DNA of 44,553 nt from a virus: the UHGV virus genome UHGV-0048026; one strand, given 5' to 3'. Below are positions 26,889 to 27,223 of the stretch, in pieces. Every line of letters starts with the position of its first letter. Position 1 is the stretch's first letter. Under the pieces are notes generated by a model. That model was not told the DNA's origin, did no database searches, and saw only the letters and a program-made list of their open reading frames with translations. The position numbers and the translations under genes were made by a program.

Positions 26889-26963
26889 TGGAGCGGGTAG
26901 CGGGAATCGAACCCGCATCATCAGCTTGGAAGGCTGAGGTAATAGCCATTATACGATACCCGC
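26889..26963 (-). tRNA. tRNA-Gly (anticodon UCC)
   Basis: 75 nt, GCGGGTATCGTATAATGGCTATTACCTCAGCCTTCCAAGCTGATGATGCGGGTTCGATTCCCGCTACCCGCTCCA; 7-bp acceptor stem, anticodon loop CUUCCAA, GTTCGATTC T-loop, encoded CCA; near-identical to host glyT as recalled. Confidence 0.85.
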
Positions 26964-26966
26964 ATA

Positions 26967-27042
26967 TGGTGCCGACTACCGGAATCGAACTGGCGACCCG
27001 GTGATTACAAGTCAGTTGCTTTGTCTGCTAAGTTAAATCGGC
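26967..27042 (-). tRNA. tRNA-like sequence, anticodon loop CUUGUAA (UGU, Thr-type) with mismatched stems; possibly pseudo-tRNA
   Basis: 76 nt, 3 nt from tRNA-Gly; good acceptor stem (GCCGATT/AGTCGGC), GTTCGATTC T-loop and CCA, but only 3 of 5 anticodon-stem pairs and mismatches in D and T stems. Confidence 0.4.
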
Positions 27043-27223
27043 AACGGTTCCTCGGAAAAAATAAAACGACCGATATATGCATTATTTCCCTGTCATCTCC
27101 TCGGAACTGACTATTGATATTAATGAGGGCAAACACTATTTCAATAAACATAGTGTCAATATTAGTAAATATATGTATAAATTTCTATCACTCGTGATTG
27201 ATTACAAATAATCACACACATAT

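Follow-up and report, generated by a model that had tools for sequence, protein, structure and literature searches.

P2-lambda interference has been reported to act through the effector Old, which cuts the host transfer RNA (tRNA) tRNA-ThrU and in this way kills P2 lysogens infected with lambda; the cuts fall after the C of two paired motifs, C28-U-G30 and C40-A-G42 (PMC12445682). A tRNA resists P2 Old only if its motif is altered and its anticodon stem is also shortened, and phage tRNA-Thr(UGU) genes rescue through replacement of the cut tRNA; a protective phage tRNA did not keep endogenous tRNA-ThrU from being depleted, and host tRNAs-Thr protected little or not at all (PMC12445682). Protection was observed with the tRNA-Thr of lambdoid phage 21, and a functional phage tRNA-Thr, Thr6, differs from the host gene thrU by 12 bases (PMC12445682). 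Host tRNA-ThrU is also a prime target of the PARIS system, whose nuclease AriB cuts tRNA-Thr(UGU) between C40 and A41, and AriB cleavage of Escherichia coli tRNA-Lys is impaired by U16C (PMC12409363). HepS, a prophage nuclease triggered by lambdoid tail-tip proteins, cuts tRNA-Thr species too (PMC13043305). In this work we analyzed a diverged tRNA-Thr(UGU) gene that precedes a tRNA-Gly(UCC) gene in UHGV virus genome UHGV-0048026, a stretch of 44,553 nucleotides (nt) referred to below as the window. The window is 100% identical to the chromosome of E. coli SE11, where it forms a lambdoid prophage whose gene content spans integrase to tail fibres. The reading that we place first, and to which we give about an even chance, is that the window Thr gene is an escape-type tRNA-Thr(UGU) allele which is now weak or dead and is eroding.

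The Thr gene occupies positions 26967..27042 of the minus strand, is 76 nt long with an encoded CCA, and was recognized by the Rfam tRNA model, by ARAGORN with thresholds relaxed to 95% (-ps95), and by homology and synteny. It matches thrU of E. coli K-12 at 65 of 76 positions and has the same anticodon loop, T arm, A52.C62 mismatch and discriminator; the 11 changes from thrU are C6U, G10A, C13U, U16C, G19A, U20C, G22A, G42C, U43C, A44G and A49G. Homology to thrU is accompanied by position, as the gene stands 3 nt upstream of a glyT-type tRNA-Gly in the interval between the methyltransferase and lysis genes. The first-pass annotation had described at this place a tRNA-like sequence with a good acceptor stem, T-loop and CCA, and each of these parts was found: the acceptor stem is paired at 7/7 positions, the anticodon loop is CUUGUAA, the T-loop is UUCGAUU and the 3' end is CCA. 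Threonyl-tRNA synthetase (ThrRS) of E. coli recognizes tRNA-Thr by the identity elements G1-C72, C2-G71, G35 and U36, all of which are kept here together with the anticodon UGU.

Four positions of the cloverleaf do not pair in the window Thr gene, namely A10.C25, A27.C43, C28.C42 and A52.C62, and the sequence does not form a four-stem cloverleaf of standard pairs. The mismatches previously seen in the D, anticodon and T stems are all there, but that of the T stem (A52.C62) is already found in host thrU and does not represent damage. A10.C25 leaves a D stem of three pairs, and the anticodon stem likewise has three. When the conserved core of tRNAs was checked (U8, A14, G18, G19, U54-U55-C56, A58, U33 and a purine at 37), the gene deviated at G19 only, which is A; this change removes the near-universal elbow pair G19-C56.

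With the Rfam model RF00005, whose gathering score is 29 bits, the window Thr gene obtained 43.7 bits (E = 3.7e-06 over the whole window). The first-pass annotation had named rejection of both tRNA genes by covariance models as a refutation, and both score above this cut-off. For comparison, the Rfam scores were 75.4 bits for the tRNA-Thr of T4, 73.8 for thrU, 61.5 for the tRNA-Thr of phage 21, 53.4 for host tyrU, 49.0 for the JLK-2012 allele and 45.9 for a sister copy of the window gene (L123). A permissive Rfam scan of the locus returned no credible family other than tRNA. At its default settings ARAGORN called the tRNA-Gly as the only tRNA of the pair, and the Thr gene was called Thr(tgt) once thresholds were set to 95%. 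We initially considered the minimum free energy (MFE) fold as a measure of tRNA-likeness; it was dropped, as the MFE fold of genuine thrU is not a cloverleaf either, and the energy of the cloverleaf itself was evaluated instead. This energy was -8.6 kcal/mol for the window gene against an MFE of -20.2 kcal/mol (a gap of 11.6), and -21.5 against -22.8 kcal/mol for thrU. The sequence ACCGG (41-45), new in the window allele, is perfectly complementary to CCGGU (61-65) and competes with the T stem.

The changes in the anticodon stem coincide with the two requirements for resistance to P2 Old. On the 3' strand the motif C40-A41-G42 has become C40-A41-C42, and on the 5' strand C28-U29-G30 is kept with C28 unpaired; pairs 27-43 and 28-42 are both open, so that three pairs of the stem remain. 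The window allele has U16C as well. Because G42C and U43C destroy the CAG motif and shorten the stem, and because U16C is present, the mismatches of the anticodon stem look escape-type rather than the product of random decay, and the lesion at 42-43 probably had its origin in escape.

In order to place the window allele among its relatives, pairs were counted over 29 distinct alleles of the family. The acceptor stem is paired in every one of them at every position, and pairs 29-41, 30-40 and 31-39 are unbroken throughout. Pairs 27-43 and 28-42 are jointly unpaired in 12 of the 29, through replacement of GU at 42-43 by UC or CC, and this unpaired state occurs on at least six backgrounds. U16C is the commonest polymorphism of the family. 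G10 and G19 are changed in the window lineage only, and of the four pairs with changes on both sides three (6-67, 13-22 and 49-65) belong to that lineage. The other thrU-type alleles differ from thrU at no more than about three positions, and those with UC (59.5-63.6 bits) or CC (58.8 bits) at 42-43 are called by ARAGORN.

The 3' portion of the Thr gene served as query against IMG/VR, and the full gene was then typed in the loci returned. Among the IMG/VR matches listed, the commonest phage allele, found in 72 of 119, was GCCGACUUAGCUCAGUAGGUAGAGCAACUGACUUGUAAUCAGUAGGUCACCAGUUCGAUUCCGGUAGUCGGCACCA, which is identical to the tRNA-Thr(UGU) gene thrU of E. coli K-12. An exhaustive scan of the same database gave 32 loci with the UC or CC state at 42-43. 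The CC state changes UCAGUAG to UCACCAG at positions 39-45, an exact copy of thrU 47-53; a single template switch between quasi-repeats could produce this state but would leave the UC state unexplained. The JLK-2012 tRNA-Thr (L158, 2479-2554) has positions 1-26 of the phage 21 tRNA-Thr (L159, 39671-39746) joined to a thrU-type remainder with UC at 42-43, and recombination between alleles is therefore evident; in it U68C restores the G5-C68 pair. Alleles of the JLK-2012 type are rejected by ARAGORN at default settings and accepted as Thr(tgt) at 95% thresholds. As to neighbouring Lys(UUU) and Asn(GUU) tRNAs, which are the further targets of PARIS, UC alleles accompany a tRNA-Asn in a phage-21-like chimeric lineage, and Lys-type neighbours are common beside host-identical alleles also, in samples that were collected differently.

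The phage 21 tRNA-Thr (OL657228.1, 39671-39746) resembles the window gene in being a lambdoid tRNA-Thr(UGU) that immediately precedes the lysis genes, with 27-43 unpaired and an altered CNG motif. Its backbone is different, with an anticodon stem GUCGC/GCGAA and a T arm AGCGG/CCGUU, and it keeps G10, G18, G19 and a 4-bp anticodon stem, whereas the window allele has lost G10 and G19. It also lies directly behind pR'-tR' in company with a tRNA-Asn, unlike the window Thr gene, which follows its own promoter and leader. Protection has been demonstrated for the phage 21 gene, whereas for the window allele it is hypothetical. The likeness to the tRNAs of T5 is that these are phage copies of tRNAs cut between C40 and A41 which carry substitutions near the cut and at U16, comparable to U16C and the 42-43 changes of the window allele; T5, however, is a virulent phage with functional tRNAs, and the prophage allele retains the U36-A-A-U-C/A41 site itself.

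The lineage carrying the window allele is rare: 14 of the 5426 complete E. coli genomes and four IMG/VR contigs have it. The allele itself is new. No annotation by the Prokaryotic Genome Annotation Pipeline (PGAP) was found at the Thr allele in any of the 14 carrier genomes, and ARAGORN at default settings rejects the sister copies too, which become Thr(tgt) at 95% thresholds. Variation within the lineage was determined from nine aligned copies. The Thr gene varies at 3 of 76 sites (positions 65, 67 and 75), the upstream flank at 7 of 188 and the tRNA-Gly at none of 75. Position 65 is U or C, giving G49.U65 or G49-C65, and position 67 is G or A, giving U6.G67 or U6-A67. Position 75 is C or U, and eight of the nine copies end in CUA rather than CCA, SE11 being the exception. 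Downstream of the module two different contexts occur, and its hosts come from several continents.

These data would fit the following course of events. The prophage genes derive from thrU and glyT of the host operon, with no tyrU between them. As a first step, the prophage tRNA-Thr(UGU) would have gained the recurrent G42C/U43C change, opening 27-43 and 28-42 and destroying the CAG motif of the 3' strand; this is the combination by which phage tRNA-Thr(UGU) resists P2 Old, just as U16C is the change that impairs AriB cleavage. Later, in one rare lineage, hits to the core (G10A, giving A10.C25, and G19A, with loss of G19-C56) would have followed, and CCA would have become CUA in most sister copies. 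It is on account of G10A, G19A and the CUA ends that we take the allele to be, about as likely as not, weak or dead at present. In favour of this reading also stand the 11 differences from thrU, the lowest Rfam score of all those compared, the failure of ARAGORN at default settings, the missing PGAP annotation and the rarity of the lineage. Two marks of a tRNA pseudogene are thus displayed, namely lost structural positions (G10A and G19A, both lineage-specific) and faster change (11 differences against about three at most).

Other observations weigh against loss of function. The remaining marks of a pseudogene, such as structure-blind changes, truncation, indels or lost signals, are absent: there are no indels, and neither promoter nor leader is damaged. 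In each of the lineage's three sub-alleles every pair of the acceptor stem forms, and no change has hit the ThrRS identity elements, the T-loop or the anticodon loop. Three helices (6-67, 13-22 and 49-65) are compensated, and a hypergeometric count gives a chance of about 0.02 that nine hit stem positions would include three or more complete pairs, which suggests that selection for structure continued through at least part of the history of the lineage. The Rfam score is well over the cut-off and just 5 bits under that of the JLK-2012 tRNA-Thr, which is annotated in GenBank, and a 5% relaxation of thresholds suffices for acceptance by ARAGORN. The module has, moreover, persisted in its two downstream contexts and across several continents.

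Much of this evidence would suit a tRNA that still works, that is, a nuclease-resistant replacement tRNA-Thr(UGU) which its changed D loop, altered CAG motif and short anticodon stem would hide from double-strand-specific Toprim tRNases (P2 Old, PARIS AriB), decoding ACA and supplied early in infection from its own promoter, which we regard as possible though unlikely. Such a tRNA would share with the protective phage tRNAs the same two determinants, altered motif and shortened stem, with U16C in addition, and every stem polymorphism within the lineage (U6.G67 or U6-A67, G49.U65 or G49-C65) keeps its pairing, in line with an acceptor stem that is 100% paired family-wide. Intact identity elements, anticodon loop and T-loop, a conserved promoter, an Rfam score over the cut-off and a use of ACA in prophage genes that is 1.9 to 2.7 times that of the host sample would be expected of it, and the number of changes is no obstacle, given the 12 bases by which functional Thr6 departs from thrU (PMC12445682). 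However, G19A and A10.C25 affect near-universal structural positions, are specific to the lineage and do not figure among published escape changes; 11.6 kcal/mol separate the predicted cloverleaf from the MFE; and most copies of this rare lineage end in CUA rather than CCA. The cleaner CC and UC alleles (58.8-63.6 bits, called by ARAGORN) are better candidates for a working escape tRNA.

A broader form of this idea would take the lambdoid copies of thrU as an allele series shaped by the anticodon-stem tRNases (P2 Old, PARIS AriB and the like) of rival mobile elements, running from host-identical copies through U16C to UC or CC, with the window allele as its extreme, a still-working tRNA-Thr(UGU) with a minimal anticodon stem. 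We consider this proposal quite doubtful. If it were true, the window allele would decode ACA, would be a poor substrate for double-strand-specific nucleases and, through its own promoter, would be expressed before late transcription.

It is improbable, in our view, that the gene is a plain neutral pseudogene unrelated to nucleases, in which the change at 42-43 reflects a mutational hotspot and the rest is drift in a decaying prophage. Such a hotspot could be read from the CC state, which copies thrU 47-53 (UCACCAG) as a template switch would, but the same template cannot account for the UC state, and six or more backgrounds carry the 42-43 states while their other stems all stay intact. Drift would agree with a divergence of the Thr allele from thrU (14%) that is about equal to that of the flanks, with the rates of variation within the lineage (3/76 sites in the Thr gene, 7/188 in the upstream flank, 0/75 in the tRNA-Gly), with an IS5-family insertion in the late region of the prophage and with odd anticodon loops in neighbouring tRNA slots of related clusters; the compensated pairs of the lineage do not agree with it, and the coincidence with two independent experimental maps of determinants is hard to dismiss. 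A non-decoding tRNA-derived RNA (decoying tRNases, helping the tRNA-Gly to be processed or regulating through an alternative fold, for example) is very improbable, since, for all that the acceptor/T-arm minihelix is intact, a long alternative hairpin (41-49 with 56-65) dominates the predicted ensemble and the Thr sequence is co-transcribed with the tRNA-Gly, no conservation signal goes beyond inheritance from thrU, Rfam matches are to tRNA only, the alternative helix is not common to other alleles, and rescue tRNAs act by replacement and not by competition (PMC12445682). The three options offered by the first-pass annotation (a decaying tRNA, a regulatory RNA, or a tRNA with unusual pairing) are still the right list, and we rank decay first, an unusual but working tRNA second and a regulatory RNA last.

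Taken plainly, the finding is a routine one, as prophages often carry tRNA genes and one of those present here is worn. Its wider bearing lies in the family. Host-identical copies of thrU travel as prophage cargo, and their natural variants cluster at the experimentally identified positions 16 and 42-43, next to the cut between C40 and A41. This natural set of alleles, with the window allele as an extreme case, would be useful for asking which changes confer resistance to Old and PARIS and how much tRNA function each of them costs. Annotation pipelines silently drop alleles such as the window Thr gene.

Some features of anticodon arms in this family were recorded aside from the above. In thrU itself an alternative 7-bp hairpin can be drawn between UGACUUG (29-35) and UAGGUCA (43-49), corresponding to window positions 27014-26994, which hides the anticodon; U43C turns its G35.U43 wobble into G-C, and UC and CC alleles stabilize this hairpin and weaken the anticodon stem. 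A gene of Escherichia phage SerU-LTIIb (L003, 1096-1171) has a thrU scaffold with the anticodon UCU and is called tRNA-Arg. It differs from one prophage Thr allele (C16/C20) by G24A, A31G and G35C, and looks like an anticodon switch from Thr(UGU) to Arg(UCU) inside the same prophage tRNA family. The slot upstream of Thr, usually an Arg(UCU), often has an altered anticodon loop (L131, 504-580; L014, 7057-7133; L140, 10454-10527). ARAGORN gave Lys(ttt), Phe(aaa) or '???' for such genes, and the Gly slot of another locus (L135) was called Val(tac). Change or decay of the anticodon loop thus seems frequent in related prophage tRNA clusters.

The second gene of the pair, at 26889..26963 on the minus strand, is a tRNA-Gly(UCC) of 75 nt with an encoded CCA. 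ARAGORN, Rfam RF00005 (65.6 bits) and the PGAP annotation of SE11 agree on it, and bear out the canonical tRNA-Gly(UCC) that had been predicted from the sequence. It equals K-12 glyT except for one compensated pair (C6-G67 to U6-A67), forms a cloverleaf of standard pairs as good as that of host glyT, has all the conserved core nucleotides and, as mentioned, is unchanged across the nine aligned copies. The gene shows no lesion, and its product most likely adds to the supply for GGA codons, of which the prophage makes more use than its host.

The two tRNA genes are separated by a spacer of three nucleotides, UAU (26964..26966, minus strand), and the same TAT junction is found in nearly all related loci. 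Relatives with about 83% identical flanks have annotated tRNA-Thr and tRNA-Gly genes at the same site, and many related loci carry extra tRNAs (CAU, UCU and others) upstream of Thr-Gly. The adjacent Thr-UAU-Gly junction was found in 877 of 5426 complete E. coli genomes (about 16%, or one in six). Judged from sequence and gene order, the prophage pair is the host thrU and glyT of the thrU-tyrU-glyT-thrT-tufB operon, with tyrU gone from between them and a 3-nt spacer in its place. Compared with the host operon, the prophage genes are fused by this spacer without tyrU, have a different promoter and leader, and lie in a phage late region. A literature search for a described Thr-Gly prophage pair found nothing specific. 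The toxSAS FaRel2 targets both tRNA-Gly and tRNA-Thr (PMC11559606), and was considered as a reason for the pairing; it was rejected as the main one because common descent from a single host operon explains the pairing more simply. Altogether the pair is a small self-promoted tRNA operon of host origin; elements of this kind are known and are an ordinary type of phage cargo. Its Thr gene belongs to those phage tRNA-Thr(UGU) genes that are known as a class to counteract defences which cut tRNA-ThrU. In Stx phages, of which 933W is one, the ileZ-argN-argO cluster consists of rare-codon tRNAs that lie between Q and the lysis/toxin genes of these lambdoid phages. The window tRNAs have a comparable lambdoid place, and differ from that cluster in consisting of the Thr-Gly pair only and in having their own promoter.

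A candidate sigma-70-type promoter was found upstream of the Thr gene by a consensus scan (27117..27144, minus strand), with a -35 hexamer TTGAAA (27144-27139), a 16-nt spacer and a -10 hexamer TAATAT (27122-27117). Nine of the 12 hexamer positions agree with the consensus, and the -10 hexamer ends 75 nt upstream of the 5' end of the Thr allele; transcription may start near 27110. These are the hexamers that the first-pass annotation had proposed, and they exist and are conserved; they lie, however, about 10 nt further upstream than the interval it gave (27105-27135), with the -35 outside it. The consensus count as such was no better than chance in the scan (2 sites, against 2.9 expected from shuffles). 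Conservation was therefore assessed over 33 distinct upstream sequences from loci with Thr as first tRNA, among which there are 18 distinct promoters. The arrangement TTGnnn-16-TAnnAT, located 5-7 nt upstream of the leader helix, was present in 33 of 33, and among relatives the hexamers had a mean pairwise identity of 0.81, compared with 0.38 in the spacers. The predicted promoter is judged to be real because this arrangement is conserved across lineages, which makes a phylogenetic footprint, given that the scan count was at chance.

The putative promoter is followed by a 5' leader of about 65 nt (27043..27109, minus strand), whose closing helix pairs 27108-27098 (AGUUCCGAGGA) with 27056-27046 (UCCGAGGAACC), has tandem G.A/A.G pairs inside and ends 3 nt before the 5' end of the tRNA. 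Leaders of the relatives open with GGUUCYGAGG and close with YYGARGAACC. RNAalifold on 18 distinct leaders gave nine pairs, four of them changed on both sides (e.g., CG in 10, UA in 4 and UG in 3). In SE11 the second pair of the helix is A.C, and in the sister copies it is G-C. The helix matches no Rfam family. In phage 21 and JLK-2012 the tRNAs stand directly behind pR'-tR' instead.

About 280 nt downstream of the tRNA-Gly, the consensus scan found an intrinsic-terminator-like hairpin, ACCGCCTCCACCGGGCGGT, with a T run (26580..26608, minus strand; hairpin 26608-26590), which is possibly the end of the promoter-driven tRNA transcript. The roughly 280 nt from the tRNA-Gly to this hairpin (26580-26888, minus strand) are unannotated; they are shared by SE11 and two further loci (C311 and L133), and unrelated sequence takes their place in sister copies.

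Codon use was compared between genes of the prophage and a sample of SE11 core genes (12,166 codons), in which GGA occurs 7.4 and ACA 6.6 times per 1000. In the late genes of the prophage (8,288 codons) the values were 10.5 for GGA (p = 0.02) and 12.2 for ACA (p = 4e-5), and in its early genes (3,551 codons) they were 17.2 and 17.5, respectively; ACA is hence 1.9 to 2.7 times more frequent in prophage genes than in the host gene sample. The enrichment of GGA that had been anticipated for late genes does exist but is mild, and early genes show it more strongly. Both tRNAs may plausibly serve codon supply, and late genes are less likely beneficiaries than early and accessory genes.

On the late strand of the prophage, the order is the Q antiterminator gene, an ompC-like porin gene in opposite orientation, an IS5-family insertion, a 65-amino-acid open reading frame, a DNA methyltransferase gene, the two tRNA genes, a TerB-like gene, holin genes with an M15 endolysin gene, and terminase. 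We asked whether the promoter of the tRNAs could be the late promoter pR'. It was taken as a separate promoter because it lies 4.5 kb away from Q, and no clear pR' was seen when one was sought just downstream of Q. The interval that separates Q (31670-32053) from the late genes holds, at window 29022-31482, an IS5-family (ISKpn26) transposase gene and the oppositely oriented ompC-like porin gene, and these genes may interrupt late transcription from pR'.

Further RNA families were matched elsewhere in the window. Rfam matches to C4 antisense RNA (84.3 bits; 36272-36359, minus strand) and isrK (63.1 bits; 36384-36460, minus strand) are immediate neighbours and adjoin two genes, one of the 'ash family' and one for a Rha-family regulator, and the same pair is present in another locus (L011); the arrangement resembles an antisense module of the P1 immI type, here in a lambdoid prophage. 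A match to the small RNA family IS009 (227 bits; 93-291, minus strand) falls inside a tail fibre assembly gene (coding sequence 50-634).

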